Assembly: GCA_947525005.1 (NCBI GenBank) | Contig: CANNUY010000001.1 | Coordinates: 321,379 to 385,378 of the forward strand | From: an uncultured Candidatus Melainabacteria bacterium | Lineage (GTDB): Bacteria; Cyanobacteriota; Vampirovibrionia; Gastranaerophilales; Gastranaerophilaceae | Length of the DNA stretch: 64,000 bases | Direction: 5' to 3' | Shown here: piece by piece, positions 33,566-64,000 of the stretch | How positions within the stretch are numbered: the stretch's first letter is position 1 | Layout of the letters: each line of letters begins with the position of its first letter | Position numbers and translations under genes: made by a program | Notes under the pieces: generated by a model | Seen by the model: only the letters and a program-made list of their open reading frames with translations | Told to the model about the DNA's origin: nothing | Database searches by the model: none

Positions 33566-33594
33566 TTGAAATTTGCTAGACTATAAATTATAAT
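33566..33594 (+). promoter_or_regulatory. Near-consensus sigma70-type promoter TTGAAA-17-TATAAT; predicted TSS ~33601, giving a ~118-nt leader
   Basis: -35 at 33566-71 and -10 at 33589-94, read directly. Confidence 0.6.
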
Positions 33595-33718: not shown

Positions 33719-36700
33719 ATGATAAACATTAAAAAAACCTTTATTAAATATATAATATTACTAGCTATGTTATTTGGTATTAGCATTAGTACCGAAGTTT
33801 TTGCTGCACCTATTACTCTATCTACTTCTTCTTCTGCAGGTTCTTGCTCTATTAATATAGGTGGTACAACTTATTACTTTAATCCAACTGGTACAAACTT
33901 TGAAGGCATGACTTATATTAAAAATACTACACAAACAGCTTCTGCTGCTGATGCAGACTTTGTTGTTGGTGGTACTTATTACAAATTAGTTAATCCAACA
34001 GTTTCTGAAGCTGAAAATACAATAGAAAATAGTTATTTTAGTGGTGTTACATCTACTACTGCTGGTTCTGTTAAAAGTGTAACATCTGGTAATTTTTCAA
34101 TAAAAAATTCTAATTTTGTAGGAAATAAAGCTGAAAACACATCAGGTGGTGTTGTTAATGGTGGTGTTTTTGCGATCTCAAGAGTTTCTCCGGTAATAAT
34201 TTCAAATGCTCTTTTCAAAGATAACTCTGCAACAGGTAATGGTGGTGCAATTCTCTTTGATAATGATAGACAGGTTAGTATTTCTGATACTAGATTCCTT
34301 AATAATACAGCTAATAGTGGTGGTGCTATTTATTTAAAAGATGTTAAAAATGCAATTATTTCTAATACAAAATTTATAGGTAACAATGCAACAGGTAATG
34401 GTGGTGCAATTTATTCATTAAACGCATCAGGTAGTACAAATACTATAACAGTTTCTGGTTCACAATTTGGTGATTCAACACATAACACTGATGATATATA
34501 TTTATATGATAATAGTTCATTAATTTTTACAGGAGATGAATCTTTAGTATATTCTCAAATTTTTATAAAAGATAATTCTAGTGTTGCAGTTGGTAATACA
34601 GTTAATGCAGGGACACTTAGCTTATACGGAGTTATTGACTCAAATACAGATAGTATACTTACAGTAAATTCAGGCTCGAGGTTGAATTTAAAATCTGGTT
34701 CACGGATAGGTGATACATTAGGACTGGCACTTAATGGCACATTAGGCTTAGAGAATGATTTTACGTGGAAGCAAAATTATACTTCCACAAATTCTGCTAT
34801 AGTAGATATAGCGTCAGGTGCTAAGTTAATATTTGACAACAATTCTGGTACTGATATTACGTTAAATAATATTACTGGTAGTGGTACGGTTCAATCTACG
34901 GGTAATAATTTAACTATTAATAATATATCTGATACAACAAATATGAATTTGTCTACAGGTACGGCATCTGTTTCAGCAAATGATGTTGCATCAGCAAAAC
35001 TTGGTCGTTATACACTTGATAATGAAACATTGACTCTAACAACTACAAACGGTGGTGTTATAGGTGCTCAAAATGCTAATCTAATAAACGCTGGTTCAAG
35101 TAATAATAATATATTAATATTAAATAACGATTCTAGTGCAACAGCATATCAGTTGGCAGATGTAAATGCTTTGGGTAAACTTACTCTTAAAAATTCAGAT
35201 GTAAAACTATTAAATACTAGATATATTAATAATACGTATGCATTTGACAATGTAAACCTTGATTTGATTGACAATACTATTCAATCATACACATTTGACA
35301 ATGCAGAGTTTGCAAATACAACATTGAAAGTTGATTTAAACCTTAATCCAGTTGGGGTGGATAATTTAGTAATCAACTCAGGTTCAGGTAATTTAACATT
35401 AACAAACCTAAATATAATGGGAGCAATAACTTCTGATTTTGAACAGAATTACGAAATTGTATCAGGAACGGCTATTTCAGGTGGTTCTGTTACTTTTGAT
35501 GTTGATGCAGGAATTTTGGGAACATCAGATTTTGGGCTTGGTACATCTAGAACAGTGACTAATAGTAGTGCCATTGGTTCTCAAACAGTTTCAAAATATA
35601 CTAATGTTGCAGGTAAAATCGTTGGGGTTACAGTAAAACTTGTTCTTAAAGATATACTAGCAGCTATAAATCAAGCTGATGGGGCTGATAGATTTTTTAA
35701 TTTTGATAATAATGGTGATGTTTATACTTTACGTGAAAACACTGGGGTTACAGCTGATGGAACACTTAGTATTAATGTAAATAATTCAAAATCAGACGTA
35801 GTTTTTGATGCTGGACATACATATTCAATGTTTGTTGTAAATTCAGAATTGGCAAGAGTTATTGCACAAAACGTAACCTTTAAGGGTGCTAAAAAAGGTA
35901 CAAACGGTTCAGTATTTGATATTTCAAACGGTATTGTATATTTGAACAATGTTCGTTTCCAAGAAAACGAAGATTATGCTTTGTATAATGAAGGTGGTAC
36001 AGTTACTTTAGTTGCGCCTACATTTGAATATAATACAATTTATGAAAATGCTTTGTATAACAAAGGTACAATGACTATTAATGGTCTTGTAAATATTGCG
36101 ACTAATATCAAAAATGAAGGTGGAACATTAACGATTTCTGCTGCAAATAATTCAATTCTTGGTAATAATGATGGTGGAGTTGCAACTTCTATTACGGGTA
36201 CAGCTGGAGAAGTTATTATTAATAATGTTTCAGCTATTAAATCAAATATAGATAATAAAGAAGGTTCTATCTTTAGAATAAATACAACAGCACCAGCATC
36301 AAATACTCAATTGAATGGAACTATTGATAACGCAGGTGAATTACATATTTCTTATGCTGATATTCTTAATACGATAACTACAGCTGACAAGGGTAAAACA
36401 TATTTTGATAATAGTGTAAATATATCAAACAAAACAGTTAGTGTTTCAAATGGTGGTACATTATATATTGGTGGTTTGAACTTGAACGACGCAATCATTG
36501 ATTTAACGGCAGGTTCAAACGGTGTTATTACAGGTACACTCAATGTTTCAGGCGCATCAAGGGTTACAATCAATACTGGTGCTGTTATGACTATTTCAGG
36601 TGCTACCTCAAATATTACTGAAGCTGATGCAAATAATTTGATTTGGTACATATTTGGTGAATTACATCTTGAAAATGGTTCAAAAACTTTAAAAATTGAT

Positions 36701-39700
36701 AATAGTGATACTTGGCAAGGTAAGATTACCTTAGCTGGTGGTAGTAGTTTTGAATATTCTGATAATTCAGGTATTCCTCTTACATTAACTTCGTTATTGA
36801 TTGAAAGTACAGACGAAACTTCTACCTTCAAAAATATGGGCGTTGATATAGAATTAAGCAGTACTGATAGTTTAGCTGGATTTATGGCTAAATATTACCA
36901 ATATCAAGGTTCATTGACTTCTTCTACAAGTGCCTTGTTTGGCGGGGTTAAAGAATTTGAAGGTACAAGTGCAAAACATTCAGTTGCTATAATTACGGGT
37001 GAATTAATTGATTTGTCTGGTATTGTATTAAATAAATATGCAGATTTGAATGCCACACTTTCTAGTGGTGATATTGATAATAATGTTTTAGCTTTCACAG
37101 GTCGTAATTCAACAGCAACCTTTACTGGTGCAGGGATTGATTTAACAACTTATAATTTGGCTAATATCAGTATGATAGATAATACAAACAAGTTGACAAT
37201 TAAAGATGCAACAGTTACGTTTAAATCAGAAGATATTACTTTCAATACAGGTGTTTATAATTTTGAAAATGTTACAATGAAGCTCCAAGATGATGATAGT
37301 AAAATGAATACATATACATTTAATTATCTGACAGTTGGAGGTGTGAATAACACATTAGATTTGACTGTTGATATGGATTTAACAGCAAAAACGATTGACA
37401 ACTTGGTAATCAAAGCTACTGATTCTACAAAGACTCAAACAATTAGACTTTCTGATATCAATGTTATGAACATTCCAACAGGCACTTTAACAGGTGCAAT
37501 TGAGCTTACACTTTTGACAGTTTATAGACGTGGTATTACAGATATTACTGATAAAGTTAAATTGACTATATCTGATGATATTACTGATAGAACAACAACA
37601 GGTGGTGCTAGCGCTGAGGTATTTTGGAACTCAGTTTGGGCAACAAAATACGAGTACACTATTAAAACTGTTGAAAGTGGCGATTTCATGCTTTATAAAC
37701 TTGTGTGTTCTATCCAAGATTACAAAGATTTGTTAGACGAATTGAATATGTATGATTCAAGTGGTGTAACTAAAAAATTCATGTATGATAACAAAAAAGC
37801 TGAAGAAACATATGAAATGAATGTTGACTTACATGATATGGTTGGTACTCTTCAAATTCTAGGTCTTGAAGGTGGACAAAGAGCAAATTATATAATTGAT
37901 GCTAAATCGCACTCTATGTTCAAATTTTCTTCAAGTTCTACAAATATACAAGATTTGTTGATAAAAGATATGACAATCAAAAACGCATTGTCTACAACCA
38001 CTTATGGTTCAGTTGTTAATATGAATAACTCATTAGCAGGTGCAACCTCAAAGGTAACGATTTCAAATGCTATTATCACTACATCAGGAACAAATACAGA
38101 ATACGGTGGTGCTATTTATCATAATATTGGTACATTAGACATTTCAAATACAACGATATCTAATAACTATATCGCATCAACAACTTCTGGTTATGGTGGT
38201 GCAATATACAAATCTAATAATACAGATGCAGTTTTAACTTTAACAAATGTTAAATTTACAGGTAACTATATTACTTATGCTGACGGTATTGGTGTTGGTG
38301 CAGCAATATATACAGCAGGTGATATTACAATCAAAGCCGATAACAGAAAGAGTTCAGATTTCACAGGAAACTATGTTCGTGGTGCTGACAACTCTCAAGT
38401 TTCTAATGCAATATTTGTTGCAACAACTACAACTACATCACCAACTATCAATTTAGTAGTTGATAATGGTACAATCAATTTTGCTGATGCAATCACTGGT
38501 GGTAGAATTTCAGGTAACAATGTTTATTATGAAAATCAATATAATATAGATATATCTGGTGTCGGTACAGTAAACTTTACAGGTGGTATTACAAATGCTT
38601 ATGTAAAAGTGACAAGTCCTGCATCTGTTGTAGGTAATAAACTAAATACTACATTTAGGGGTGTTTATGAATATACTAATATCAATCTAACAGGTGATAA
38701 TCTTGTTAGTTTAACAAGTTTAAATATCTCAAATGCTTCTTTAGGTAACAATCCTGCAATCTATTCTGATGGTGGACAAATCACAATAAATGGTGTGAAT
38801 GTACACGATAATAAAGCAGGTGGTATATATATACAAAATGCAGGTGTTTCATTTGGTGCACCTACAAATATAAATACTTTTAATTCAAACAAAATTACTA
38901 CAAGCACAGCTACATTGAAAGGTGCTGCTTTAACATTGATTGATTCTGTAGTAAATAATGGTAACAAAATCTTGAGAGGTGATTTTAAAAATAACTCACT
39001 TTCATCAAATACATCATCAGCTTTAGGTGGTGCAATATATATTGAAGGTGGAGATGCTTATATCACTCTTGTTTCAGATTTGATTGGTAACAGTGCTCAA
39101 ACATCAAGCACAATAAACAAAGCTCTTGGTGGTGCAATATTTACCAATCTAGATTTGACGCTTAGCGCTAATGCTAACAAATCAGAAATTACAATACAAG
39201 GAAACTATACTCAAAGTGGTTCTGAAAAAGTTTATAACGCTATTTTCTTAGCAAATGGTGCAGAACTTATTATGAACTCTGAAGCTGCAAACGGCATTAT
39301 TAATATATACGATACTATTGAAGCAGGTTATGTTGGTGATAGCATTGGTGATGTTACAGATGTTACTTATAACGCTGATGCTAAATCACAAGTTACTATA
39401 CTTGGTGCTGCTAATACTTCAAGAATTAATATCTATAACAAATTTATTAATACAGATATTACATCAAATACTGTTTCTCTTGTATTTGATGGTTCAAGTA
39501 AGAATAACGTTGAACTTGGTGATGGTGTTGAACAAAGTGATTTGTTGAATACAAGCCACAATTCAGCTTATTCAACTTTAACAGTTAATAGTGGTAATTT
39601 ATATTTGAAAAATATGATTATCAATAAAGCTGATCAGGTTCTTAATATTTCAAATGGTGTTAATACAACTATTCTAAATTCTATAATCAATATGCAGGAT

Positions 39701-42700
39701 ACTGGAAATGTTCAATTCTCTACATTAAATCTTGGCAAGCTTTCTTCAGATGCATCTTCTATTTATAAGATTGATTTCCAATTTGAAGATGGTATTGTTT
39801 CTTGGGATAAGTTTGATGTTGATGCAACATCAACAGGTACATTAACTTTAGACATCAACTTTATTGCTGGTGATAATAAATATATCACAACAGGTGAATA
39901 TACAATTATTAATACTGAAAGCAATATCAAGCTTGCTTTATCAGAATATACAAAACAACACGGTGTTTGGAACTACAAAATTGAAAGAAACACTGTAAAT
40001 TATGATGATTATATTGGTAGTAAATCAGCAGATGTTTTAGGTAACAAACTTATTATTTCTGAACAAAAAGAAGATACTTTATTAGCAATTCTTAAATACG
40101 GAAATGGTAAGAATAATGATGATACTCCAGAAAACCCTGATTATAACGTAAACGATCCGACAACAAATATCAGATACTTTACATTTAATGGTGGAACAAG
40201 AGATAAAGTTTATTATTTAACAAGTGATGTAAGAAGTGATGAACCATTACCTGCAGGTATTTTATATATAAAAGGTAATGAAAATAAAGGTGGAACAGTT
40301 TCTAACGATGTAATTGACGGTTCTTATGTTACTCATGTTGACGGTGGTGATGATATTGTTGGAAATTATGCGTTATTCAATATCCAAAAGGATACTGAAA
40401 ACCCTAATAGAAAGATTACAATTGATATTAGCAATTTGACAATTCAAAATATTGGTATATATACTAATTTGGGTTCATCTGTAGTTACATTAAATGATGA
40501 AAATGCGACTGTTAGAATGAACAAGGTTATATTATTAGATAACCTTGGTAACGCTATTTTGAACAATGCTGGTTATGTTGAACTTAATTCAGTTACTTTT
40601 GCCGCACCAACTGATCCAACAAAGGATATTAATAATATAAGTAACTCAGCAAATAAACAAGATGAAAGCGGAAATGTAACTCAAGGGCTTTATGCAAAAC
40701 AATCTGAATTCAATGTTAATATATTTAACGCAGGTTTGTTTAAATCAGAAGTATCAAATTTCTATTCAAATATTACAAACAATGGAACTATTATCTTTGC
40801 AGGTACTGGTAACCAATTTGTGTCACTTGACCCTGACAAACAAATAACATTGTCTGCAAGTAGAGGTAATGGTACTTTAGATATTTTATCAGGTGCAAGT
40901 TTGATTCTTGGTACAAATGCAACTATATCTACAAACCAAATTGTTAAGATTAGAAACGGTTCAGAATTAGCATTGAATGGTGGTACATTATTCCTTGAAA
41001 ATAATGATATATTTGAAGCAGGTGGTGTACTTAGCAGTAAGTTAGAAAATTCAACATCAACTGTTTTAAATTATGATGTTGCATTGAATGCTTCTACACC
41101 ACGTCCGATTTATGATACTGAAGGTAATATGCAGTTTGAAAGAGGTTATTTTGATTTCGAATCAGGTACAATCAATATCGGTATAACTCAAGCTACAACT
41201 CTTTATGTTACTGAACTTGATACAATCGCTCAAGCTGTTGTATTAAATATGAACCGTGCTGATAGTATATTAGAAATTTATAATCACCACGATGATTCAA
41301 CGGCTATATATATTGATCTTGGAAAAGTTGCTGATGGTGCTGATTCTTGGAACGATGGTACAATTTCATTACATAATTCTACTTTGGTTATGACTCCGAT
41401 TGACCCAGCTGATAGAGATAATTCTCAATTTAGATTTACTACTCAAATCTTGTATGGTGATGAAACATCAATATTTAAGAATATCAATTCTGATATTGCT
41501 ATTGCAAACTCACAAAAATCAGGTTTCTTTGGTGAATATATCCAAGAAGGTGACGATGCCGTAACAACAATTTATGCAACAGGTTCGTTCTGGGGCTATA
41601 ATAAAGTTACTAATGAGGATGGTTCTACAACAGTGAGTGTTGCTAAAAAATCAATTAAAGGTGGCTTAGTTGATATTATTTGTTCAAGTGCATTAGAAAA
41701 CAACGAAACTGTTAGCAACATTGATTTGTATTCAGGTGTATCACTTAAAATTGGTGCTTTAGGTGGGGTAATAGATAAAAATATCTTCAAATTTGCTTCA
41801 GGAGCTTCAAACGCTACTGCTAACTTCTATTTCAACTCAAATGTTGTAGATGAGAATATATACTTTATGTTAAACCCTATTAACAATAATAGTAGCAATA
41901 CTATTGTTATGGGTTCAGATGATTTCATTACAAATGTTCGTCTAGGATTTGATAAAGATAAATTAAAATTCTCATTTGGTGAAAATGCTGCTGGTGCAAC
42001 AACATACAAGTTCGTTAATTCTGTTCTTAACTTGACAAAAGAAAGTGAAATTTTCGCAGATGTAACATCATCAAAAATTACTGATTTCAATACATATACA
42101 TTTGCATATTTAGATGTTGATGAAAATACTGTTATTCATTTAGATTTAGACCTTGCAACAGAAGACAAGTATAGTGTTTCTGATGTTATTCAATTGTTGG
42201 GTGTTTTGACAGATGATGCAGGAGCTCCTGTTGAAAAAGAAATGAAGATTTATTTCCATATAACAGAACCTTCTAAAATCTCTGATGAACAAAGTCGTGT
42301 TATTGAAATTCTAACAGGCGCAGGTGCTTCTTCATACAATATTAAGATAGCAAATGACCCAGAAGATATTAAATGGACTTATTCAGTTGGCTCTTATATT
42401 GTTGATGGTGCTGCACAAGTTAGTTATGATACATTTATGGGCACAAAATCACTTGATACATTCGATAAAAACGGTGATGGTAAGGACGATTCTGTTGAAT
42501 TGACAAGTAATCAAGAAGATACATTACGTGCTGTGAATGTATATGAATATTGTGATGTTAAATACTTCAACTTTAGAACAAAAGATGATCCTGTTGATGC
42601 AGTAATTGAAGATGTAAGAGTTTATAAATTAATTGATAATTTAGGTGTAACTAAAAAACAATTAAACATTGTTGGTATAAATAGAGAAAGTAGTATAATA

Positions 42701-57700: not shown

Positions 57701-60700
57701 TCAAATATTATTATGAACGGTAATAATACAACATTTACAAATATTGCAACTTCTAATAATGGAGGTATTGTAAATTCTGATGTTGTATCACTTGGTAATG
57801 CAGTGGCTGGTGTGGATATCAAGTTTACTTCTACATCAAATACTGAATACGTATTAACAGGTGGAATTGAAAATGGTTATAGAAACAACGTGACATTTGA
57901 AAATTCACGTGTATATCTTGGCAAATTCCAATCTTCTGATAATGACTATGATATTTCTGGTCAAACTGTTTATAAGTTCACAAATTCTATAATTGATTTA
58001 ACTGCAGGTTTAGGTGATAACAAAGGTTATATCAATGATTATAGATTTGGTAATATGCAATTAGATAGTCGCTCTAGTTATGTAATTAGTTTTGACTTGT
58101 TTAATATTAAGTCAGATACTTTGACATTTGATGCAAATATGATTGATACAACTACAGAAGGTACAGTATTGATTTCAAAAATCAACTATTTATTACCTGA
58201 TGCAACAACAGAAGCTGGTGATAGAGTTGTTAGAGTGTTGTTTGCAAATGACGATAGAAACTTGAAACTTGGTAAGGATGTTCAAACAAGATTTGTATAT
58301 GATGTAACAAATGATATTACCTTCAATCAGTTCATTGGCTCAAAAGAATTGTCATTGGCTAAATCAGATGGAAATAATAATTATGACAGCTTGTTATTGA
58401 GAATTGCTGATAGAAAAGACGCACTTCAAACGTTGAATATGAAAAAATTTGACGGTACAAATATTAGAAACTTTAATTTTGTTGATTTGTACGATACAGA
58501 TGTTGATGGATATCAAACATATACATTGATAGGTAATACAGGTAATTCAGTTCGTGGCACATTGAATGTAAACGGTAAAATTCGTGGCACAAAAGACGAT
58601 ACAGTACTTTACGATGTGATTAATGCTGATAATAAATATTCAATGTTTGTATTGTCAGAAATAGGTATTATATTAAACATCAATAACGTAAATATTAGAA
58701 ATGCAGTTATGAATGCAGGTCAATATTCATCTAGATATGCTTCTGTACTTGATATTATTCACGAATCAGCAAGAGTGACATTGAACAATGTTGTATTAAC
58801 AAACAATGGTGGCACTGCTATTTATAATGCTGGTACATTGAATATGAATGGTGTTAAGATTGATGCTTCTGCAAACGGAAATACTGTATCAAACAAAGGC
58901 ACAATTAATATTGCTAATTATACATTCACTAATGACTTAGGTAATGAAAGTTATATAGCATTTGATAACTATGATGGCGAAGATATTAGAAACGTATTAA
59001 ATTCTGAAATTACAAACACTGGTGAAATTAACTTTAGTGCTGATTCAACAACATTAGTAGGCGCTAATATCTTAGGAACTGGTACATTGAATGTTAATGG
59101 ATTGCTTGTATTGAAGGGCACTGATATAACACCTGTTTCTATTGATGATTTACAATCAGTAAATATCTTGGCTGGTGCAAGATTAGTTATGGATAAAGCA
59201 AGCTTGACAATGTCAACAGGCGATTTGTTAAGTGCAGGTGCTACTGTTAAATTGATTGATTCTACATTCAAATTCACTGAAATAGAATCAACAGACGTTA
59301 ACTTGTTTGCACAAAGTGGTAAATTAGTATTAGATAAGAAAGCTAAATTGTCATTGACATCAAATTCTACAATTTCTGATGAAATGGTTGTTGAATTGAT
59401 TAATGGTCAATTGACATTAAATTCAACTACAGTTGGCGATAATGTTGTTGGAACAGAACTTAAACTTGCTCAAAATGACAAGATGACTTCTGATTCAAAA
59501 GTTATTTTAAACGGTGTTGGCACATCTTTAACTTTAGAAAAAGGTGTTAATGGTAATGATAAAGTTGAATTAACAAATACTAATATTCTAGGTACAGGTA
59601 CTTTAAATAACAATGGTATAAATATTGTTATTTCATCTGATGAAGCTAACGCATTTACAGGTGCTTATTATCAATATGGTGATAGCACAACTGCAAGATT
59701 AGATATATTAAGTAATGTTCAAGCTGATAGAGAAACATCAAACGTATTTGGTGGAAAGAAATACATCAATAGTGGTGATGTGAATATTGAAAGAACATTC
59801 GGTATTAACTATAAAGACTTCATCTTGGGTGATGGTGTTAGATTTACAAACAACTCATTGACTGCAAATGGTGGTATTGTTGATAATTCAGTAATAACAT
59901 TGAAAGGCAATAATATAACTGCTTTGTTTGGTAAATCAGTAAATGCTCCAAGTACTGTTGAAAGAGTAAATTATACATTGACTGAAAACATTTTCTCTAC
60001 TGATGAATATGGTAATACTGATGGACATAACTATAATACTATTCAATTCAAAGATGCGGTAGTTACATTGGGTATATTTGATTATGCAACTGATGGTAAA
60101 GGTACTGATATTTATACAAATTATAAGTTTACAAACTCTGTAATTGATTTGAAAAATGCATCATTTGATGAATACAGATTTACAAGTTTGGTATCAGATA
60201 ATTCATTTATTACATTAGATTTAGATTTTGCAAATGGTAAGAGTGATACATTAAGATTAGGTAACACATCTCAAGGTGTTCTTACGATTTCTGATTATAA
60301 TGTTAACTTAAGACAAGAAGATAACGGAACTGTATTACAAATATTGTTTGCAGAAAATAGTTCAATGAGATTACAATTATCTCAAGAATTAGCAAACAAA
60401 GGATATGATTTCACTATTTTGGGTAACGATTTTGAAGGCAATCGTCACGTTGTTGATAATGGTGATATCAGATATATCAAGATTTTGGCAAATGACTTTA
60501 TAGGTCAAAAGAAATTAGAAATTGTATCTCAAAATACAACAAACGATAGTATTAGAGTTTACAACAGCTTTGTAGAAGATGCATTAAAAGTTGTAAACAG
60601 ATACGATAATGGTGCTTATGGTTATGCACATAGAACATTTACATTCGACGGTGTATCTGATAATTACGTATATTATGTAAAAGAAGATGCAGGAAAAACT

Positions 60701-63700
60701 GCAAGTGGTGTATTTAACATTATCGGTCGTGAAGGTAGTAACGATGTATTAGATGGTGTTGGATATACTATTGTTAACGGTGTTGTTACAGAAAATACAA
60801 ATGTTTACCACTCATTGTTTGAAATTACAAACGCAAACACAACTTTGAATATTAGTAATGTAACTATTCAAAATATGGGTACAATTTCAGATGCTAAATT
60901 GATTTCAGCATTAGATATTGAAGCAACTGATGCGATTGTAAACTTGATAAATGTTAGATTGAATAATAACCAAGGTACAGCAATTTATAACAAAGGTAAC
61001 TTATCATTTACTAATGTAGAAATCGGTAGAGCAGGTGCTATAGGATTTGAAAATTCATTAGAAAACGCTGGTACATTGACTACATCTGGTAATAATACAT
61101 ATTATTCAAGCATAATCAACAATGGTACAATCGAAATTTCTGGTACAGATAATGTTTATAACTCAATTATCAGAACAGATGATTCAAAAGATGCAGTAAT
61201 CAGTGTTGTTGACACAGGTGTTCTTAATATGAACTCTGACGGTGCTTTGAAAGCTATTATTTCAGATAATATAATTGTTAATGTTTATGAAAATGCAACA
61301 ATAAATATCAATGGTGCTGATTTATCATTAAATACAGGTGATACTTGGACTGGTTCAATTTATTTGAATTCAGGTAGCTTGACTTATTCTGATTTACAAA
61401 CTAATGGTAATTTTGTAGCTCAAGGTGGTGTATTGACTTTGAATAATAATGCTATCTTGACAGTTAATTCTAAACAATTAAAATTGGCTGGTGACGAAAC
61501 AATTAAAGAAACAGAAAATGGTTATATTGCGTATGATGTTACTATTGCTGATGATGTAAATGTAATAATCAATGCAGGCACAATACTTAATGTTAAAGGT
61601 TACACAAAACCAGAAGCAGTTGGTGGTATCAACAGAGATGTTTTACATTACAATAAATTGACATTAGGTACTGGTGATGTTTGGGATGGTAAGATAGTAT
61701 TAGAAAAAGCATACTTGACTATTGCTAAGGGTGTTACATATTTAGGTGCTGATAATGACTTTGTATTTAATGACTATAATCATTTACAAGCAGATAGTTA
61801 TTCAGTATTTGAAAACAATGGTTTAAATATTACTTTGACAGCTGATTTTGGTACTAAGTTTACTGGTCGTTATGAACAAAACGGTAATGCTACAATGACA
61901 GTAACAAAAGACGGTGTATTGTTCGGTGGCATTAAGAATATCAATTCTGGCAAACTTATTATAACAACTCCAACTGATTCAGTTGATTTTGATGGTAATC
62001 CTGTTGTTTCACAAGGTATTAATTATGATAATGTAAATCTTGGTAGCAGTGTTGTATTTGAAAACTATGCTTCAACTATAATAGGTGGTAACATTACTAC
62101 AGATACAATTAGATTTGTTGGTGATAATGGTTCTGCATTATTCACAAATTCTTCAACACTAGATATTATCAATTTCGAATATGTAGTTGATAAAGAGTTT
62201 GTTGATGCAGATGGTCAAATATACTTGGTAACAGGTTATTTAGGATACTATGCAAAAGATGATGTTGATGGACAACATAAATATATAACTAATGATGATG
62301 GCACAGTTAAGATTGTTTATGACCCATCAGAAGAAAAAGTAACAACAGTAAATGGTTTTGTAAATTATGATTTAGATATTGTTTCATCAACTGGTGTTGG
62401 AAATGAAATTACCTTTAAAAATGCAAATGTTAGATTAACAGGAACTGTTCAAGACAAAATTGTTGATTATTCTGTTGGTGGAATTAAATACAACTTCTTG
62501 AACACATACCTTGATTTAACAGCTGATGACAACGCTTATACATACAAATTCGATTCAATAAATATTGGTGGTAAACAAGATTCTTCAATGAATTTGATTA
62601 TTGATATTTGTGCTGATAAATCAGAACTAGACAGTATTTATGTTGATGATAAAAATGCTGTTGGTATAATTTATCTTGCTGAAGTTAATTTGATTAGAGA
62701 TGTTGATGATCAAAGCCAAAACTTCCAAGAATTTACTAGAAAAGTTATCAAAGGTGATAACAAACTTGAATTAAAATTGTCAGATTATATTGATAATAAC
62801 GCTGGTATTTTGACAAAAACAATTAGTCAATATGATACAAGAGGCGTTTATGAAATGAATGTTCCTTGGAATGCTTATCTTGGTAAAATTCATATTTCAT
62901 TGGCATACTTAGATGAAAATGACAATGTAATTCAACCTGACGATCCTAAATATAGCGATAAAGCAAATGGTATCCGTGTAGCACAAATGTATACAAAAGA
63001 TTTGCTACGTGAATTATCAATGTACGAATCAAAAGACACTACAATTCCTTATAAAGTACGTAACTTGAACTTTACAAGTAGTGTTAGAGAACAAAAGATG
63101 ACATTGTTGGCAAATACCTCTGGTTATTTGAGAGATGATGCTGGTAATCTTGCTGATAAAGATGGCGAATTACTTCCAGAGGGTGCATCTCCTGTATTCA
63201 AAGGCGTTTCATCAGGCGTATTGAATATCAATGGTAAAGATTCTACACATAGTATAATTGATGCTTATGGAAATGTGATTTGTCACGATACAATAAGTAA
63301 TAAAACTTCTACTGATTCTAAAGGTAACGATACCATCACTGTATTATCAGAAGGCAAATATAGACATTCAATGTTTGTATTGAATGAAGAAACTAACTTG
63401 TCTATTAAATCTGTAACAATCCAAAATGCATACAGAGGTAACAAGACAACGTTTACTTATGATTACAAAGTTCTAACAGATCAAAACAAAAATGCATACG
63501 AAACAAGACACGTATACGACCAAGTATTGTATGAAGATTTCGATACAACGGGTGGTAAAGGTTCTGTTATTTATCAGTCAAATGCAAATTCAAAAATTTA
63601 TTTAGAAGATGTAGTAATTAAAAACAACGCTTCTTACGGTAATGGTGGTGCAATTTATGCAGCAAAAGGATTTACAATCAATGCTGTAAATGGAGATGTT

Positions 63701-64000
63701 CTATTCAAAGGTAACTACCAAAATGTTACAAATACAAAGAATGCAGCAATATCAACTGATGCTATTGTTGGTACTGATAAAAACGATATCTATATCGGAA
63801 GTAATTCAACAAATACTAATCTTGTTATGAACTTGAACTCAGCAGCTGGCAAAACTATTCAAATCGCTGATGGCATTGAGTTTAATGGTGGCGAAACTGG
63901 TAACAAGTTAGTTATTGATGTAAACAGAGGTGTTTATCAAGATATAAATACTAATGAAATCAAGAATGCAGGTAGCACAGGTAAAGTATTTATTGGTGGT
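33719..64000 (+). CDS. Giant secreted repeat protein, at least 10,094 codons in-window and 3-prime truncated by the window end. Signal peptide (aa 1-29) plus Pmp/autotransporter-type beta-helix repeats throughout; a putative type V passenger or other giant surface adhesin
   Basis: First ATG after an in-frame stop at 33707. The frame (position mod 3 = 2) was checked by hand at 40016, 45002, 50102, 57002 and 63992 and is stop-free. The ORF track shows no other plus-strand ORF over 60 aa between 33113 and 64000. Signal peptide MINIKKTFIKYIILLAMLFGISISTEVFA|AP. Recurrent GNGGAIY / GGAIY and F(I/V/L)xN motifs. Confidence 0.85.
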   Translation, partial: MINIKKTFIKYIILLAMLFGISISTEVFAAPITLSTSSSAGSCSINIGGTTYYFNPTGTNFEGMTYIKNTTQTASAADADFVVGGTYYKLVNPTVSEAENTIENSYFSGVTSTTAGSVKSVTSGNFSIKNSNFVGNKAENTSGGVVNGGVFAISRVSPVIISNALFKDNSATGNGGAILFDNDRQVSISDTRFLNNTANSGGAIYLKDVKNAIISNTKFIGNNATGNGGAIYSLNASGSTNTITVSGSQFGDSTHNTDDIYLYDNSSLIFTGDESLVYSQIFIKDNSSVAVGNTVNAGTLSLYGVIDSNTDSILTVNSGSRLNLKSGSRIGDTLGLALNGTLGLENDFTWKQNYTSTNSAIVDIASGAKLIFDNNSGTDITLNNITGSGTVQSTGNNLTINNISDTTNMNLSTGTASVSANDVASAKLGRYTLDNETLTLTTTNGGVIGAQNANLINAGSSNNNILILNNDSSATAYQLADVNALGKLTLKNSDVKLLNTRYINNTYAFDNVNLDLIDNTIQSYTFDNAEFANTTLKVDLNLNPVGVDNLVINSGSGNLTLTNLNIMGAITSDFEQNYEIVSGTAISGGSVTFDVDAGILGTSDFGLGTSRTVTNSSAIGSQTVSKYTNVAGKIVGVTVKLVLKDILAAINQADGADRFFNFDNNGDVYTLRENTGVTADGTLSINVNNSKSDVVFDAGHTYSMFVVNSELARVIAQNVTFKGAKKGTNGSVFDISNGIVYLNNVRFQENEDYALYNEGGTVTLVAPTFEYNTIYENALYNKGTMTINGLVNIATNIKNEGGTLTISAANNSILGNNDGGVATSITGTAGEVIINNVSAIKSNIDNKEGSIFRINTTAPASNTQLNGTIDNAGELHISYADILNTITTADKGKTYFDNSVNISNKTVSVSNGGTLYIGGLNLNDAIIDLTAGSNGVITGTLNVSGASRVTINTGAVMTISGATSNITEADANNLIWYIFGELHLENGSKTLKIDNSDTWQGKITLAGGSSFEYSDNSGIPLTLTSLLIESTDETSTFKNMGVDIELSSTDSLAGFMAKYYQYQGSLTSSTSALFGGVKEFEGTSAKHSVAIITGELIDLSGIVLNKYADLNATLSSGDIDNNVLAFTGRNSTATFTGAGIDLTTYNLANISMIDNTNKLTIKDATVTFKSEDITFNTGVYNFENVTMKLQDDDSKMNTYTFNYLTVGGVNNTLDLTVDMDLTAKTIDNLVIKATDSTKTQTIRLSDINVMNIPTGTLTGAIELTLLTVYRRGITDITDKVKLTISDDITDRTTTGGASAEVFWNSVWATKYEYTIKTVESGDFMLYKLVCSIQDYKDLLDELNMYDSSGVTKKFMYDNKKAEETYEMNVDLHDMVGTLQILGLEGGQRANYIIDAKSHSMFKFSSSSTNIQDLLIKDMTIKNALSTTTYGSVVNMNNSLAGATSKVTISNAIITTSGTNTEYGGAIYHNIGTLDISNTTISNNYIASTTSGYGGAIYKSNNTDAVLTLTNVKFTGNYITYADGIGVGAAIYTAGDITIKADNRKSSDFTGNYVRGADNSQVSNAIFVATTTTTSPTINLVVDNGTINFADAITGGRISGNNVYYENQYNIDISGVGTVNFTGGITNAYVKVTSPASVVGNKLNTTFRGVYEYTNINLTGDNLVSLTSLNISNASLGNNPAIYSDGGQITINGVNVHDNKAGGIYIQNAGVSFGAPTNINTFNSNKITTSTATLKGAALTLIDSVVNNGNKILRGDFKNNSLSSNTSSALGGAIYIEGGDAYITLVSDLIGNSAQTSSTINKALGGAIFTNLDLTLSANANKSEITIQGNYTQSGSEKVYNAIFLANGAELIMNSEAANGIINIYDTIEAGYVGDSIGDVTDVTYNADAKSQVTILGAANTSRINIYNKFINTDITSNTVSLVFDGSSKNNVELGDGVEQSDLLNTSHNSAYSTLTVNSGNLYLKNMIINKADQVLNISNGVNTTILNSIINMQDTGNVQFSTLNLGKLSSDASSIYKIDFQFEDGIVSWDKFDVDATSTGTLTLDINFIAGDNKYITTGEYTIINTESNIKLALSEYTKQHGVWNYKIERNTVNYDDYIGSKSADVLGNKLIISEQKEDTLLAILKYGNGKNNDDTPENPDYNVNDPTTNIRYFTFNGGTRDKVYYLTSDVRSDEPLPAGILYIKGNENKGGTVSNDVIDGSYVTHVDGGDDIVGNYALFNIQKDTENPNRKITIDISNLTIQNIGIYTNLGSSVVTLNDENATVRMNKVILLDNLGNAILNNAGYVELNSVTFAAPTDPTKDINNISNSANKQDESGNVTQGLYAKQSEFNVNIFNAGLFKSEVSNFYSNITNNGTIIFAGTGNQFVSLDPDKQITLSASRGNGTLDILSGASLILGTNATISTNQIVKIRNGSELALNGGTLFLENNDIFEAGGVLSSKLENSTSTVLNYDVALNASTPRPIYDTEGNMQFERGYFDFESGTINIGITQATTLYVTELDTIAQAVVLNMNRADSILEIYNHHDDSTAIYIDLGKVADGADSWNDGTISLHNSTLVMTPIDPADRDNSQFRFTTQILYGDETSIFKNINSDIAIANSQKSGFFGEYIQEGDDAVTTIYATGSFWGYNKVTNEDGSTTVSVAKKSIKGGLVDIICSSALENNETVSNIDLYSGVSLKIGALGGVIDKNIFKFASGASNATANFYFNSNVVDENIYFMLNPINNNSSNTIVMGSDDFITNVRLGFDKDKLKFSFGENAAGATTYKFVNSVLNLTKESEIFADVTSSKITDFNTYTFAYLDVDENTVIHLDLDLATEDKYSVSDVIQLLGVLTDDAGAPVEKEMKIYFHITEPSKISDEQSRVIEILTGAGASSYNIKIANDPEDIKWTYSVGSYIVDGAAQVSYDTFMGTKSLDTFDKNGDGKDDSVELTSNQEDTLRAVNVYEYCDVKYFNFRTKDDPVDAVIEDVRVYKLIDNLGVTKKQLNIVGINRESSIIDGCANLDPEGDPDANKGFTMFQVTNAATILNISDVTIKNADLGDGTDNSDKASVMYITGSNANVTLKNVTFVNNEGVVDVDAAAGTINATSAAIYNSSNLTMTNVKFNSGTNDQIANNIINDAGTIYINSEGNEPNIFGSYITNTATGRITFQTDSYSQLTSTMINDNANAQITIDTGAELAMDGASKIMLNDGRMFVYGKITSNSGNIVISKDATLTLRGEDSKISDFINIDVMGSLVVDNNTVSEDNNTGEINYGLVLGDGDSLINDGNTMTGNVELSSNGVLSLRRGLKDAVDDDDTTLLTLNNSQIKGSDTSILYNGRSQYDDGLTIKVVSDEAGFAGTYYQYGRSSKLIIGYETDKDDPKTITSRGTIFSGAKYIDEGSSLDVYANTINYSKVLLGTDAKYTHYAMSTQGGTIDNNLLTFFKSGATATFTYDDTQIAGPAPDADPTTLTDAEKFPVTYNLYSIASSAGITTERIYNNIVFSKVQVNFANTDYTGHNAYTFNDSLLNFMENTESADYRTYKFTKATFNNTEMNIDIDLVSGNSDKIEIAAGGEATGVITITGLNLVKFDPSQQGTYQIIVNGSNNFYLQLSDKLTTDQSGYTWDYKIDENAPIVYNSQFIGKKGIDVATKETYQDSIRIYNEQQDTLSAISTFVSDLERRFVFDESVNQTYSLISDVGVVSAGTLTVQGNINRDSIIDGEYVGTDGNVAHHSMFNITDVTEKDGAVTKNPVNLTINNVSIQNAGVIGETGASALYINNADSTVTLNRVTLRNNDQRAISNIMGILSLKNVTFEEADYGNTLYNTGLVVTSGSNVFNTVITNEVKSNTAPENTTLTNMLPNNFNVAAPDVTFITTGINEFNADIVNNATIQFAGTDDSLMNIKGRGTVYFSGKATLYGDIDNDIVIKVSPNGQLILSGMEEQIEDGEGNVTSTNFIPSSITLDFVNGGDLWDPEGKITLDGGIFEFYGRDAAEGAGIDDKKGMNGYFSSTTRGGVLNINSGLFVVKNASTSTAERKDLVDEVEVTINKGARLLVTGYEVVNFGTDDTIHEGAEIELVDNAKFILNGITYINENGDELHDLRLDNDDFVSGDSKTARFINNGINIVIASNQSNYQGIYEQNNDAVINVLAGGAIFGGDKYINSGELSIDADTINYTGIYLGNNVKFTNTINSADNVAQITTNGATPDVAGVLNFIGEGAVAIFGNSTPNAKYAKYELANNIENDKTNTIKFENSEVRLTATGTPQNGRLAHNYTGSTIYQFNNSYINLTDYELADFIDGKVNAPAGNDADGNAGAGAVKGTCDIFQFTNLVTDKDDINKTYIAMDIDFKNRVSDSFVIKSLNSSGYLYIDAINIMTEPVKDDGQDPYIPLRIIQYDNSLLAGYTAEQLLSGEGLNLVELVLTHEGGYVWESNIDDTYTDPQGNVLVDYTNFIGSKTLVITSIVTKNDGLAFNYDRKDLLKTVNEYVVKDTEKNTKTFQFNDAGQIYTMSDNSGESGEGKFIIKGFDEGSTIDAVGQYSLFNMRNVTDMSVDNITFTNAVLIDDDKATSVFYINNTKITLALNNVVFRNNKGYALYNNGSSNVTLQDVTFEAVDKDDLVTTDNSIYNNRGMISITTSADDKENLFATNISNARDGIFNVAGTNTFSGAIINYGTMNMGGTTTIQGELTHNSGLLSFADKVTVTGILTNKSNISVESTGDDIETVFMNTINNFGTISIGGNAKLQSEVIPDINSPSVIQVNEAGVFTIYTDGKVTKGNNLVFKNGSTVNVDDGVLEIDENDTISGEIVLGASLNGLPVDHSVINYYGSKNYFEQGRKYTLNSGTFNLLGGIWRIYEGDTFALNPRYDLVINLTEGEMQLMAFGETFVLNGKDTWTNSVVALSNSALEIGVGLNANSSLNLSKDAQLYNNDDPDGNKSSLTNTGVDLTISADMSEFDGKYTQSKDVEANRVPSLTVTENGLVFGGEKEIQSGSVNITTNGKIYYNNFNIVGAKDDKVTFTTASTGGVIDDTIIKFTGESATATFTNYVPAQAGDTVQDGDTVQADTKANYELGNFDMANGGTSTTIIFENSNIVLTTTDYSTISAYQFNNSVIDMQKDVDSIFNQYNFAKLNNSNSTYKIDVDLSKFTANTMIDIASQTDDNRVSDLIVINDANSVGNIVISDINFLNTLDPKALGVVQILSTPTANVGLELSEEVANKVWYYQITDRKFVQTGNTVSIDSNEFLGEKSLSVTKYGVDSLANDSLRIDVLKYYDVLREINMYDAGEDVIRIFNMVKDDAQAGNGGNDAGADDAVVTTGAVYTLKKSTGSTAVGTMNVVGTLGADNAVIDIINADNHSMFVVDKDGTKLNISNVSINGANNVDDDGVTLNASVIDISSALATVTLENVVFSQNKDDAVYNAGSLNMYNVVFNTGGMLSANSFRNAGIAKLYGTNEFASDVDNSGTINVQETTNPKYTDDVKNTFNIVTNSGHMYFNAGEVEFLGNVNNTGDIKLYVKALISAQITGNGTLYIQGVVPTAENADVVSTVVSATGNITEDVAIDLDENGILQLLGGKATFNSNDNWKGTVLLDDDPDTQTGATMVFKDLTSNGSITSTTTGKLSIESSGAETIFTLEKGSLLNDELQLSIGQNTKLKLDNYIDDQDAMQVLTLSAGDTWNGTIELVGSSLKTTSDLVANSNFEFAFNNQLIGDEASIYENSGLNLVIRKDLSLFKGTYNQTADANNQGGQVNPDGAPQANAGSLTVYMNNYGDNENNNGKMFTGTKNINSGTVTIYDGGTNYYNEKDKTAYYGGFVLGANTQYTNYSAGGSVKSDIVKFADAGTGAVALFTNLTDSKESANAEYNLHAYTSTGENIISFRNSNVTLKDTDYSDKTNYTFGLNTLVNTQDNELKSYNFETLTLTDNAKFNIDIDMKKVVDGAKFPVPADDTADVVADTFKVGANSAGNFIISDINFKDFDINHSLGIIQILSGASDKISLVLDATYKANKTWAQQIKDDCLDAETDSYIVYNDTFLGTKGIREAKYEGSAANDSVEIFIKEQKDALNEISITETSKQRVFQFRAYPDVDNQDPDAPVTEYVYNMTQNLGVVTAGKLKVQGLDKTNSIIDATNVDTNDRYSMFMLSNATEFVLSDVTIRNAISSIPSYNTSVLMVLNAGANATVKNVIFEDNEGYAVYVNDGVAKFDSVTFTAPQTADADNTNNSIYVYSNKATLNIDGTNVFGTMIRNVSGTVNVNGANEFGANILNTSGTMNFDGVNTFNASISNTRNGNITMQGKNIFTGLTGENGSAISNIASTLNISGNTTFKGNTANQFGGAIYLGSSSTANINADFGGLNAGDGNTAERGGAIYIDTVKNVVISSNFINNTANQLGGAIYSNSDFTIAALDDTEITFSGNTANGVSNAIYMDNPISTIPTITFNLSGTSSMTFYDIVTGYEAATPINRFNINITNSTAEGIDNNPTVNFYNYVNNANITIDDIAVTFDASKALITGTTSDDDKKTISQDFLKNSSIKLVSGQLTLNTVTLNNYSKNTALNTLLVTPTDDIVQTVILNNSSVKLSNELSVTNTVDNTYFGKLSSNNTEYSIDVVLVGEGDYHFDYDGTLVVTKGKENAADTIEVLAGSNGTVLLTSINFINENQTNQGIIQILKGDLQNSNITLELSDALKDKTWDYSIDKYVVDNVNDVVSVIYTDFIGTKGLKLAQYDKNLKDGIFDAIEITSTEPSLDLLATINQGWSSDKTFMHKVRNFNFTLAYDMELYRLTANSGETGTGEVTISGYAGRKDILDAMGEYSMFIVKQQGVTLNLNNVIIQNAVMNDKADKSENASVLDITAEDAVINLNNVTFSNIGGNAIYNAGVVNAKNVTFVPVDADNNNVGGGVIVNNGDMNVIAGTNKFGSSIINNLQWNFGSVTNVDNIENIIDGLFTNNATVTSYQFVTTTYNGGIIAGNNATFNFGGVDILNSSLSLANAATAILNIMGDVTVTQNSGITDDNFIVNVVANGVLNIVGSEVDINLATNDIWEANGKITLRNYVDLADENNNSTGYLKYIGKDVGGNNGILVAESGKFELVEGVFDYEGTSSIADTVDIVLTGGNLNLKKNGITLSAGDVWTTNGNVVLDDGITVTVANGINNGGDLELTDNSTIATEFATSNFVNDGANIIVKTDESEIYKGIYTQKSGSLNVINDGNLTGKIFGEKDGNHALKDIQGGSVTVNYTGAKTETYDATIDYGNIKLGSNTQLTNITYGGLINSELLSFAGDSATATFTGITTDDVYSLNAIDSPNGVNTIKFLGSEKLFTNVLLLDTDYATTNYIFENSVVSFKNGNIPATNDKVGVVVLSQYHFSTLSSNNSLFEIDVDLAKSLADTIKIDSIVNDSFDNIIKLSNINFINPAQHDSAVIKVLVDKIDGVTLALTDDMAAKTWVYGVDATRLFNDGTNDVVRITNGDFLGTKAIRLVNSNDLTSQDSSTFDSIQIYNSITLDILNEITKFDTPNNLDGKDVFSRQFVFTDINSNYNMTMSLETVGSGRYDIVGVVKADAPYSVIDAGVDTNYSMFDITKVTQMYVNDVQFKNAGLIADKDASVFNIENVDSNVYLTNVRFTDNKGYAVSNKGTLVLDNVIFDAPNATDNEGNAIYNEGTIYTSLIVKNGRIELNSVVENIGEINLGGDVYLNNTIKGKDGKLNIGYNTNVNGVATDISSKLYVGAGAIVTGDQVVNLAEGSLIDNAGNVYLNIGDTWNGEINNTGTIEIEGVEAGAVSTINATAGTVSIRDVLLNDVLHHSSINVISTDDKARTIAKEVVLSLDENSVINLTGTAVNNASVYIDSADSWAGFIALKNEHTLLTIDGVTSNGKILATAGNINILGASTISLDENSEINNVTNISLTDNSSLEWKNHKADKKLVFSTGDSWNNATIKLVNADLEMASGLNNGATNFVFNTNNVLSGDSDSQFTNKDLDLTIDADESVFGGKYVQDGGNLVVNATGKMFGGESSINSGSVTITRDGVIDYSNIIMNGNNTTFTNIATSNNGGIVNSDVVSLGNAVAGVDIKFTSTSNTEYVLTGGIENGYRNNVTFENSRVYLGKFQSSDNDYDISGQTVYKFTNSIIDLTAGLGDNKGYINDYRFGNMQLDSRSSYVISFDLFNIKSDTLTFDANMIDTTTEGTVLISKINYLLPDATTEAGDRVVRVLFANDDRNLKLGKDVQTRFVYDVTNDITFNQFIGSKELSLAKSDGNNNYDSLLLRIADRKDALQTLNMKKFDGTNIRNFNFVDLYDTDVDGYQTYTLIGNTGNSVRGTLNVNGKIRGTKDDTVLYDVINADNKYSMFVLSEIGIILNINNVNIRNAVMNAGQYSSRYASVLDIIHESARVTLNNVVLTNNGGTAIYNAGTLNMNGVKIDASANGNTVSNKGTINIANYTFTNDLGNESYIAFDNYDGEDIRNVLNSEITNTGEINFSADSTTLVGANILGTGTLNVNGLLVLKGTDITPVSIDDLQSVNILAGARLVMDKASLTMSTGDLLSAGATVKLIDSTFKFTEIESTDVNLFAQSGKLVLDKKAKLSLTSNSTISDEMVVELINGQLTLNSTTVGDNVVGTELKLAQNDKMTSDSKVILNGVGTSLTLEKGVNGNDKVELTNTNILGTGTLNNNGINIVISSDEANAFTGAYYQYGDSTTARLDILSNVQADRETSNVFGGKKYINSGDVNIERTFGINYKDFILGDGVRFTNNSLTANGGIVDNSVITLKGNNITALFGKSVNAPSTVERVNYTLTENIFSTDEYGNTDGHNYNTIQFKDAVVTLGIFDYATDGKGTDIYTNYKFTNSVIDLKNASFDEYRFTSLVSDNSFITLDLDFANGKSDTLRLGNTSQGVLTISDYNVNLRQEDNGTVLQILFAENSSMRLQLSQELANKGYDFTILGNDFEGNRHVVDNGDIRYIKILANDFIGQKKLEIVSQNTTNDSIRVYNSFVEDALKVVNRYDNGAYGYAHRTFTFDGVSDNYVYYVKEDAGKTASGVFNIIGREGSNDVLDGVGYTIVNGVVTENTNVYHSLFEITNANTTLNISNVTIQNMGTISDAKLISALDIEATDAIVNLINVRLNNNQGTAIYNKGNLSFTNVEIGRAGAIGFENSLENAGTLTTSGNNTYYSSIINNGTIEISGTDNVYNSIIRTDDSKDAVISVVDTGVLNMNSDGALKAIISDNIIVNVYENATININGADLSLNTGDTWTGSIYLNSGSLTYSDLQTNGNFVAQGGVLTLNNNAILTVNSKQLKLAGDETIKETENGYIAYDVTIADDVNVIINAGTILNVKGYTKPEAVGGINRDVLHYNKLTLGTGDVWDGKIVLEKAYLTIAKGVTYLGADNDFVFNDYNHLQADSYSVFENNGLNITLTADFGTKFTGRYEQNGNATMTVTKDGVLFGGIKNINSGKLIITTPTDSVDFDGNPVVSQGINYDNVNLGSSVVFENYASTIIGGNITTDTIRFVGDNGSALFTNSSTLDIINFEYVVDKEFVDADGQIYLVTGYLGYYAKDDVDGQHKYITNDDGTVKIVYDPSEEKVTTVNGFVNYDLDIVSSTGVGNEITFKNANVRLTGTVQDKIVDYSVGGIKYNFLNTYLDLTADDNAYTYKFDSINIGGKQDSSMNLIIDICADKSELDSIYVDDKNAVGIIYLAEVNLIRDVDDQSQNFQEFTRKVIKGDNKLELKLSDYIDNNAGILTKTISQYDTRGVYEMNVPWNAYLGKIHISLAYLDENDNVIQPDDPKYSDKANGIRVAQMYTKDLLRELSMYESKDTTIPYKVRNLNFTSSVREQKMTLLANTSGYLRDDAGNLADKDGELLPEGASPVFKGVSSGVLNINGKDSTHSIIDAYGNVICHDTISNKTSTDSKGNDTITVLSEGKYRHSMFVLNEETNLSIKSVTIQNAYRGNKTTFTYDYKVLTDQNKNAYETRHVYDQVLYEDFDTTGGKGSVIYQSNANSKIYLEDVVIKNNASYGNGGAIYAAKGFTINAVNGDVLFKGNYQNVTNTKNAAISTDAIVGTDKNDIYIGSNSTNTNLVMNLNSAAGKTIQIADGIEFNGGETGNKLVIDVNRGVYQDINTNEIKNAGSTGKVFIGG
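35822..64000 (+). repeat. Tandem array of at least 12 diverged coding modules (2.0-2.6 kb each) inside the giant ORF
   Basis: The anchor codons [Y/H]S[M/L]F (F[T]MF or YALF in two modules) recur at 35822, 37910, 40367, 42752, 44843, 47255, 49703, 52040, 54056, 56333, 58637, 60809 and 63365. Each is followed within ~20-30 aa by N[VI]T[IF]xN[AIM]. Confidence 0.75.

Follow-up and report, generated by a model that had tools for sequence, protein, structure and literature searches.

What does a reading frame of 10,094 codons encode when it is still open at the end of the sequence, and how would its product leave the cell? The question arises from a 64,000-nt stretch of DNA (the window; positions 321,379 to 385,378 of contig CANNUY010000001.1, forward strand, assembly GCA_947525005.1) from an uncultured Candidatus Melainabacteria bacterium. 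An initial annotation, made from the sequence by itself, described one uninterrupted and incomplete gene for a secreted giant built of polymorphic membrane protein (Pmp) repeats. We are very confident that the gene at this locus is intact and that its product is a giant, modular β-helical protein exported by Sec. That this protein as a whole is an outsized adhesin of the type Va autotransporter kind is the reading that we favor, with moderate confidence. The host is a member of Candidatus Gastranaerophilales (Melainabacteria/Vampirovibrionia), uncultured bacteria of the gut; genes 77-87% identical to that for its AdhE (29110-31824) come almost exclusively from Gastranaerophilales/Melainabacteria gut metagenome-assembled genomes (MAGs).

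The frame opens at an ATG at 33719, preceded by an in-frame TAA at 33707, and runs without a stop to 64000 on the forward strand, giving exactly 10,094 sense codons as first described. At the window's GC content of 32%, stops would be expected at about 7-8% of random codons, so a chance origin is excluded. The second-longest stop-free stretch in the window, an AcrB gene, has 1,062 codons, and the reverse strand reaches 420 at most. Composition is uniform along the giant gene, and its product is acidic (pI 4.3) and rich in Asn, Thr, Gly, Ile, Asp and Ser, with very little Arg (1.6%) or His (0.5%). Only nine of the 10,094 residues are Cys (0.1%), and such a Cys-poor passenger is a supporting, non-defining feature of type Va autotransporters.

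That the gene continues past the window edge, as had been proposed, was confirmed by a 473-kb gut-metagenome scaffold (L002; ENA ERZ28614821, MERR22-1_SAMEA4766378-S001_METAG-scaffold_7) with 100% identity to window positions 22645-43112, which makes it either the source of the window or a sequence identical to that source. This scaffold extends well past the gene on both sides, and the complete product is annotated as 12,416 amino acids (aa) from an internal Met17, which corresponds to 12,432 aa (~1.34 MDa) counted from the ATG at 33719. The gene is therefore predicted to end ~7 kb beyond the window, at the equivalent of position ~71017, with a length of ~37 kb. The NCBI MAG GCA_052272225.1 contains another complete copy, of 12,397 aa, and a third copy, of at least 12,411 aa, reaches its contig end. 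By coordinate arithmetic, two further products of 12,081 and 12,088 aa are contig-end truncations.

Because the sequence comes from short-read metagenome assembly and the protein contains internal repeats, an assembly artefact, or a decaying array of smaller genes fused by misassembly, has to be considered. We find either barely conceivable and reject both. The internal repeats are only 19-31% identical as protein and Tandem Repeats Finder returned only two trivial 18-nt repeats; with no DNA tandem array to act on, repeat collapse or expansion is not realistic. Assemblies from different studies agree on the structure, six independent ones in all, and the complete lengths are 12,397 and 12,416 aa. 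Five independent assemblies with 88-96% aa identity keep the frame over ~3,100 comparable codons, and indels among orthologues involve whole codons throughout. The ratio of nonsynonymous to synonymous substitution rates (dN/dS) between orthologous copies is 0.12-0.31, indicating purifying selection. The single continuous gene described in the initial annotation is thereby supported.

The product begins with a Sec signal peptide, which was correctly recognized from the start, and MINIKKTFIKYIILLAMLFGISISTEVFA followed by AP is conserved in all orthologous copies (L001, L003-L006). It is the sole transmembrane-like hydrophobic segment in the 10,094 aa and stands at the N-terminus, as in type Va autotransporters. 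Gene callers in all source assemblies start the protein at Met17 (MLFGISIS...), dropping codons 1-16 (33719-33766). A product begun there would lack the n-region of its signal peptide, with its positive charge. Because the upstream ATG and MINIKKTFIKYIILLA are kept in every orthologue, the database entries are probably, on sequence conservation, 16 aa too short.

Self-comparison and iterated hidden Markov model (HMM) searches resolved the protein into 13 tandem, diverged modules of ~750 aa, with a period of 680-810 aa and pairwise identities of 19-31%. Gapless autocorrelation of the protein had shown no repeat period, whereas the iterative HMM did reveal one. Each module opens with a conserved "head" of ~266 aa (13 HMM matches, 141-302 bits; starts as in Table 1, approximate for modules 2 and 13). 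A "tail" of ~218 aa also gave 13 HMM matches, one directly ahead of each head, including one before module 1. The module consensus carries β-helix rung patterns, for example T.L.I.NVTI.NA and A.V.L.NV.F.NN.G.AIYN.G.L...NVTF, and the few columns invariant across modules (D37, L39, F113, S145, A170) are mostly structural. A Pfam scan of the ~10,000 aa returned nothing above threshold, and the module has no Pfam or NCBIfam model. The N-terminal head region of the protein, ahead of module 1, is the most strain-variable part, with 65-80% invariant columns compared to 82-95% in the modules. It is matched by NCBIfam TIGR01376 (21.7 bits), by the tail HMM (39 bits) and by our own Pmp HMM.

The Pmp character of the protein proved much weaker than first described. 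The initial annotation saw GG[AV]I[YFL] and FxxN motifs filling the chain, but just 12 copies of the strict motif GG[AV]I[YFLWH] are present among the 10,094 aa, and Pfam PF02415 (Chlam_PMP) scores 17 bits, under its cut-off of 20.6. TIGR01376 (POMP_repeat; cut-off 15 bits), the family proposed for checking, passes at aa 163-181 (21.7 bits) and ~aa 6352-6372 (38.2 bits), not throughout the protein. We also built a Pmp HMM from the canonical array of P0001, a 4,095-aa homologue annotated as "hypothetical protein" in a Candidatus Gastranaerophilales MAG. This gave 38 weak-to-moderate matches in the giant against 2-8 in shuffled sequences. The density is about one tenth of that in a true array; P0001 has 35 GGAI motifs in 1,345 aa. 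Within the window, then, a dense tandem GGA(I/L/V) and FxxN array making up most of the passenger was not found. Canonical repeats are confined to aa 172-251 in the N-terminal head, modules 2 and 8, and aa 9974-9999. In place of the array there are the 13 unclassified super-modules, most with one degenerate AIYN.G Pmp-like rung at a fixed offset (~150-195) and none with more. Judged from these motif and profile matches, the Pmp relationship is real but, within the window, vestigial. Modules 2 and 8 are the most divergent copies (19-25% identity to the others) and the only modules with clusters of canonical GGAIY repeats; they may preserve an older module state or may have been re-seeded from a Pmp array.

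Structure prediction agreed with the β-helical, passenger-like fold that had been proposed. AlphaFold modeled module 11 (aa 8198-8920; multiple sequence alignment of the 13 modules) with a predicted local distance difference test score (pLDDT) of 85 and a predicted template modeling score (pTM) of 0.77, and the junction of modules 11 and 12 (aa 8561-9250; alignment of 12 junctions) with pLDDT 80 and pTM 0.71. Both models consist nearly entirely of short β-strands. In the junction model, each module is closed by long hairpins and a low-confidence stretch of ~13 residues lies just ahead of the boundary. The module is thus predicted to be a pectin-lyase-like right-handed parallel β-helix ending in long β-hairpins, a fold that does not by itself decide function. 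A passenger that is mainly right-handed parallel β-helix is what type Va autotransporters have, and the closest structures to the module models are autotransporter passengers. For example, Bordetella Vag8 (PDB 7akv) and E. coli UpaB (6bea) resemble the module at the level of fold rather than family, at 13-15% identity, and their passengers are single units of ~400 aa, unlike the 13-module giant. Profile and sequence searches of the PDB with the module and the N-terminal head gave nothing meaningful at the sequence level.

The relatives indicate how such a protein may end. An exhaustive HMMER search with aa 8000-9199 against 1.84 billion cluster representatives returned 25 proteins at E <= 1e-3, mostly fragments, the best 39% identical. 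Head and tail units also occur in P0001, P0002, P0004, P0027, P0032 and others. P0004, which can be followed for 6,444 aa before its contig stops, combines a signal peptide with Pmp-like repeats and at least eight modules. P0032 (1,545 aa) and P0025 have a single tail-plus-head unit and a C-terminal PF03797 autotransporter barrel (E 9e-23 and 2e-24). Ahead of the barrel, the order in P0032 (signal peptide, Pmp repeats, tail, head) is colinear with the N-terminus of the giant, and these small relatives support, by sequence, an expanded type Va autotransporter. Toward the other end, window aa 9008-10094 align colinearly with P0001 1515-2521 at 40.5% identity (50% over the last 394 aa), and module 13 corresponds to the last module of P0001, which precedes its dense Pmp array. 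Past the aligned part, P0001 continues for 1,574 aa up to its contig end, with a Chlam_PMP match at E 3e-34. Because of this colinearity, the 2,338 aa beyond the window should comprise what is left of module 13, a dense Pmp array no shorter than 1.3 thousand aa and ~600 aa more. Whichever export route applies, the ~750-aa super-module represents, by sequence comparison, a protein family not classified so far and restricted to a few lineages of gut Gastranaerophilales.

From these observations we propose the following model. The signal peptide takes the protein to the periplasm through Sec. The mature chain has the N-terminal head with its few Pmp repeats, then 13 anciently diverged modules with a predicted β-helix fold. 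The unseen residues would complete module 13 before a dense canonical Pmp array, by analogy to P0001, and a type Va β-barrel, by analogy to P0032 and P0025. The β-barrel assembly machinery (BAM) would insert the barrel into the outer membrane, possibly aided by the periplasmic chaperone Skp, whose gene directly precedes that of the giant. Export of the passenger would follow from C- to N-terminus, the chain folding vectorially into a segmented β-helical fiber of ~0.2-0.25 µm, estimated at ~25 residues and 0.48 nm per rung. In this topology the strain-variable head would form the distal tip, and the protein would act as a long-reach adhesin toward host mucus, particles or other microbes. It may have evolved from a small Pmp-type autotransporter by 13-fold amplification of an internal module, as reported for the autotransporter BigE discussed below.

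Several points weigh against this model. The defining barrel is unread, since the last 2,338 aa lie beyond the window. The precomputed Pfam record is "-" (no hit) for both complete copies; if proteins of this length were truly scanned, the empty record speaks against a PF03797 barrel and likewise against a PF02415 array. P0004, taken as a control, is also without a Pfam hit on record and does not show whether long proteins were scanned. P0032 and P0025 are distant (52-58 bits with the module HMM), and domain shuffling could be the source of the shared module. We know of no protein for which type Va secretion of a 1.3-MDa passenger has been demonstrated experimentally. The adjacency of skp, which is only suggestive, is confined to this species complex, and skp has a terminator-like hairpin of its own. 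Adhesin function and fiber length are drawn from inference.

The same unread C-terminus, the empty Pfam records of two complete copies and the lack of a known barrel that handles 1.3 MDa would suit a giant Sec-exported β-helical exoprotein without a C-terminal type Va barrel, which we consider unlikely without being far-fetched. Such a protein might use a two-partner-like or unrecognized outer-membrane transporter encoded elsewhere, carry a novel C-terminal anchor, or be released as a matrix or S-layer-like fiber. Against it, wherever the C-terminus of a family member can be read, it is a PF03797 barrel, and these proteins are colinear with the giant at its N-terminus; no other N-terminal secretion domain was found. 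The two-partner secretion (TPS) domain PF05860 had no match in aa 1-2500 at E <= 0.01 and no TpsB/Omp85-type gene is present in the 33 kb upstream, on which grounds a TPS (type Vb) exoprotein was rejected. The 572-aa ORF upstream (see below) was considered as an outer-membrane partner of the giant, and no support was found.

Two further explanations concern function and transport machinery. The protein could instead be a multi-catalytic enzyme that degrades polysaccharides, each module serving as a lyase, hydrolase or depolymerase unit with mucin, dietary glycans or the capsules of other bacteria as substrate. This is improbable, given no sequence-level match to enzyme families in Pfam, NCBIfam or PDB, the few and mostly structural invariant columns, and the very low Arg and His content. 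Many bacterial proteins above 5 thousand aa are adhesins of type I secretion systems (T1SS), such as SiiE and MpIBP, and the window holds an ABC exporter gene (34-1689) as well as genes for an outer-membrane efflux protein (OEP), an AcrB-type pump and an HlyD-type membrane fusion protein (MFP) at 5646-11435. An RTX-like giant adhesin exported through an ABC/MFP/TolC system is nonetheless highly improbable and was largely refuted. A conserved, cleavable Sec signal peptide is no T1SS feature, Pfam found no RTX or BIg repeats in the giant, the fold is β-helix rather than tandem Ig domains, and the nearest transporter genes form a resistance-nodulation-division (RND) efflux operon at least 22 kb away, with no T1SS adjoining the giant on the visible upstream side. 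An outsized type Va autotransporter remains the reading that we prefer.

The distribution of the gene was examined at the loci of its relatives. Among 80 GTDB Gastranaerophilales loci matched by adhE (L007-L086), none carries the giant gene or its local synteny at the syntenic position, adhE alone being common to them; the giant gene is lineage-specific. AdhE identity reaches only 87% among the species representatives of GTDB r232, none of which shares the neighbor genes. The last 300 aa of the window product matched no GTDB genome contig, and JGI metagenome contigs gave nothing either, whether scanned with those 300 aa or with an alignment of the window product and P0001. The lineage therefore seems to be absent or only fragmentary among the species representatives, even though ~60 indexed blocks of the assembly collection contain the identical Skp protein. 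When the last 1,500 aa were used in a word-indexed protein search, 8,000 candidates came up, none scoring, and the last 150 aa gave only P0026 (188 aa, from a 1,084-nt ENA contig). P0026 is 97% identical to the window over its C-terminal ~65 aa, with ~120 unrelated N-terminal aa, and is probably a chimeric micro-contig or a frame called across a misjoin. A search with the last 250 aa of P0001 returned only short generic Pmp proteins and not P0001 itself. The word-indexed search retrieved neither the 12-thousand-aa orthologues nor P0001 from their own pieces, and the exhaustive representative library lacks the 12-thousand-aa protein. Very long proteins thus seem to be systematically missing from protein indices, which would hide such families. 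Literature searches turned up no account of giant genes, or of autotransporter genes, from Gastranaerophilales.

Upstream of the giant gene lies skp/ompH, and this order, found on many gut-metagenome contigs through the exact Skp product, is kept in 10 of 10 orthologous contigs. Skp is a known chaperone of autotransporters in E. coli. Two terminator-like hairpins and a candidate promoter separate skp from the giant gene (Table 1). Between adhE and skp is a 162-aa ORF (32026-32514, forward; called as 151 aa) with no Pfam match, which adjoins skp in all orthologous contigs; it was rejected as a skp paralogue, having no similarity to skp. Two forward ORFs upstream of adhE (26209-27024, 271 aa; 27275-28993, 572 aa) have no significant Pfam match and keep their synteny in all contigs of the species complex. 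Farther upstream, the RND operon (5646-11435, forward) is complete, with the unusual order OEP, AcrB-type pump and HlyD-type MFP, and like the ABC exporter it lies at least 22 kb from the giant. It is flanked by a divergent LysR regulator (4636-5538) and a major facilitator superfamily transporter (11603-12757). A histidine kinase gene (3052-3798, reverse) overlaps that of a response regulator (1808-3070, reverse) whose output domain is a GGDEF diguanylate cyclase; cyclic di-GMP signaling often controls surface adhesins. A tRNA-Leu (anticodon TAA; 4153-4239, forward) is the only RNA gene in the window according to Rfam and ARAGORN.

Table 1. Features of the giant gene and of the region just upstream, in window coordinates.
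Feature	Position (nt)	Strand	Basis and remarks
Giant ORF, first 10,094 of 12,432 codons	33719-64000	+	no stop; 100% identity to L002; dN/dS 0.12-0.31
Sec signal peptide, aa 1-29	33719-33805	+	KK n-region, hydrophobic core, cleavage between VFA and AP
N-terminal head, aa 30-610	33806-35548	+	three canonical Pmp repeats (aa 172-251, nt 34232-34471), then module tail (aa 436-583)
Module 1, aa 611-1301	35549-37621	+	module-head HMM 154.6 bits; module alignment
Module 2, aa 1302-2090, divergent	37622-39988	+	canonical Pmp repeats aa 1460-1552 and 1769-1823; head HMM, module alignment
Module 3, aa 2091-2898	39989-42412	+	head HMM, module alignment
Module 4, aa 2899-3608	42413-44542	+	head HMM, module alignment
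Module 5, aa 3609-4419	44543-46975	+	head HMM, module alignment
Module 6, aa 4420-5209	46976-49345	+	head HMM, module alignment
Module 7, aa 5210-5996	49346-51706	+	head HMM, module alignment
Module 8, aa 5997-6674, shortest copy	51707-53740	+	canonical Pmp island aa 6302-6388 (nt 52622-52882); TIGR01376 38.2 bits
Module 9, aa 6675-7427	53741-55999	+	head HMM, module alignment
Module 10, aa 7428-8197	56000-58309	+	head HMM, module alignment
Module 11, aa 8198-8920	58310-60478	+	copy used for modeling; predicted right-handed parallel β-helix
Module 12, aa 8921-9725	60479-62893	+	head HMM, alignment; 11/12 junction model pLDDT 80, pTM 0.71
Module 13, aa 9726-10094, cut by window edge	62894-64000	+	atypical last module; Pmp repeat aa 9974-9999
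skp/ompH periplasmic chaperone gene, 155 aa	32645-33112	+	Pfam PF03938 OmpH, E 2.7e-10
Terminator-like hairpin after skp	33132-33169	+	17-pair stem then T-run; pattern match only
Second terminator-like hairpin	33504-33535		pattern match only
Sigma-70-like promoter candidate, TTGAAA-17-TATAAT	33566-33594	+	11/12 matches; pattern match, such sites not above shuffled expectation

The Gastranaerophilales inhabit human and animal guts and are related to cyanobacteria, but they do not photosynthesize and have not been cultured; their interactions with hosts and neighbors are poorly understood. In a genome of ~2 Mb, a ~37-kb gene would take up perhaps ~2%. That it is kept intact across strains from several cohorts shows how heavily these bacteria invest in a surface structure. 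This structure is probably an adhesive fiber of great length whose distal tip varies between strains. If the type Va reading is true, a 1.3-MDa β-helical passenger must cross the outer membrane without ATP, and a C-terminus that is a type Va barrel would make the protein naturally suited to testing how large an autotransported passenger can be. If there is no such barrel, the protein points to an export route not yet known. A bolder reading, which we consider less likely than not, is that this is either the longest type V autotransporter so far (12,432 aa, compared to 10,429 aa for BigE) and the first such giant in the cyanobacterial lineage, or a case of barrel-less, megadalton β-helical fibers exported by an undescribed route. 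The module also adds a family missing from Pfam and NCBIfam, in proteins long enough to be invisible to some indexed protein resources.

Among known systems, the initial annotation placed the protein with the largest of bacteria. It is a giant, but the placement is generous, as proteins of 40,000-85,000 aa are documented and the protein is far below the record. Giants in Omnitrophota (up to ~85 thousand aa), RCC1-type proteins of gut Oscillospiraceae (~40 thousand aa), MpIBP (1.5 MDa) and SiiE resemble it in gaining length through internal domain amplification and in a presumed surface or adhesion role. They differ in being built of antiparallel β-helix, RCC1 propellers or BIg domains, and in their secretion routes and phyla. 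The fusobacterial adhesins Fap2 and RadD (3-4 thousand aa) share with the giant a Sec signal peptide, a long β-helical passenger, a presumed adhesin role and a low-GC gut or oral diderm host. The giant is about three times longer and has a modular super-repeat architecture, and no sequence homology between them was returned, none of the 25 family matches being fusobacterial by name.

Chlamydial Pmps are proteins of 90-190 kDa with dense repeats. The giant resembles them in its β-helix fold, in the GGAI/FxxN repeats of its head and of modules 2, 8 and 13, in the degenerate Pmp-like rung of most modules, and through the dense canonical array of its relative P0001. Conversely, its repeat density is about ten-fold lower, it does not pass PF02415 in the window, no Pmp middle domain was detected, and the ~750-aa super-module has no Pmp counterpart. 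The more relevant precedent, which the earlier comparison with Fap2-type proteins of 3-4 thousand aa omitted, is BigE, a predicted type Va autotransporter of 10,429 aa from a betaproteobacterium with an eight-fold replicated passenger (Celik et al. 2012, PMC3419190). BigE comes from another phylum, is built on a BrkA-type passenger rather than the ~750-aa module, and has a barrel detected by HMM where the C-terminus of the giant is unread; the giant has 13 replications to its eight and is ~2,000 aa longer. The likeness, drawn here from architecture and not from sequence comparison, is that in both proteins a β-helical passenger unit present once in smaller relatives has been replicated in tandem.

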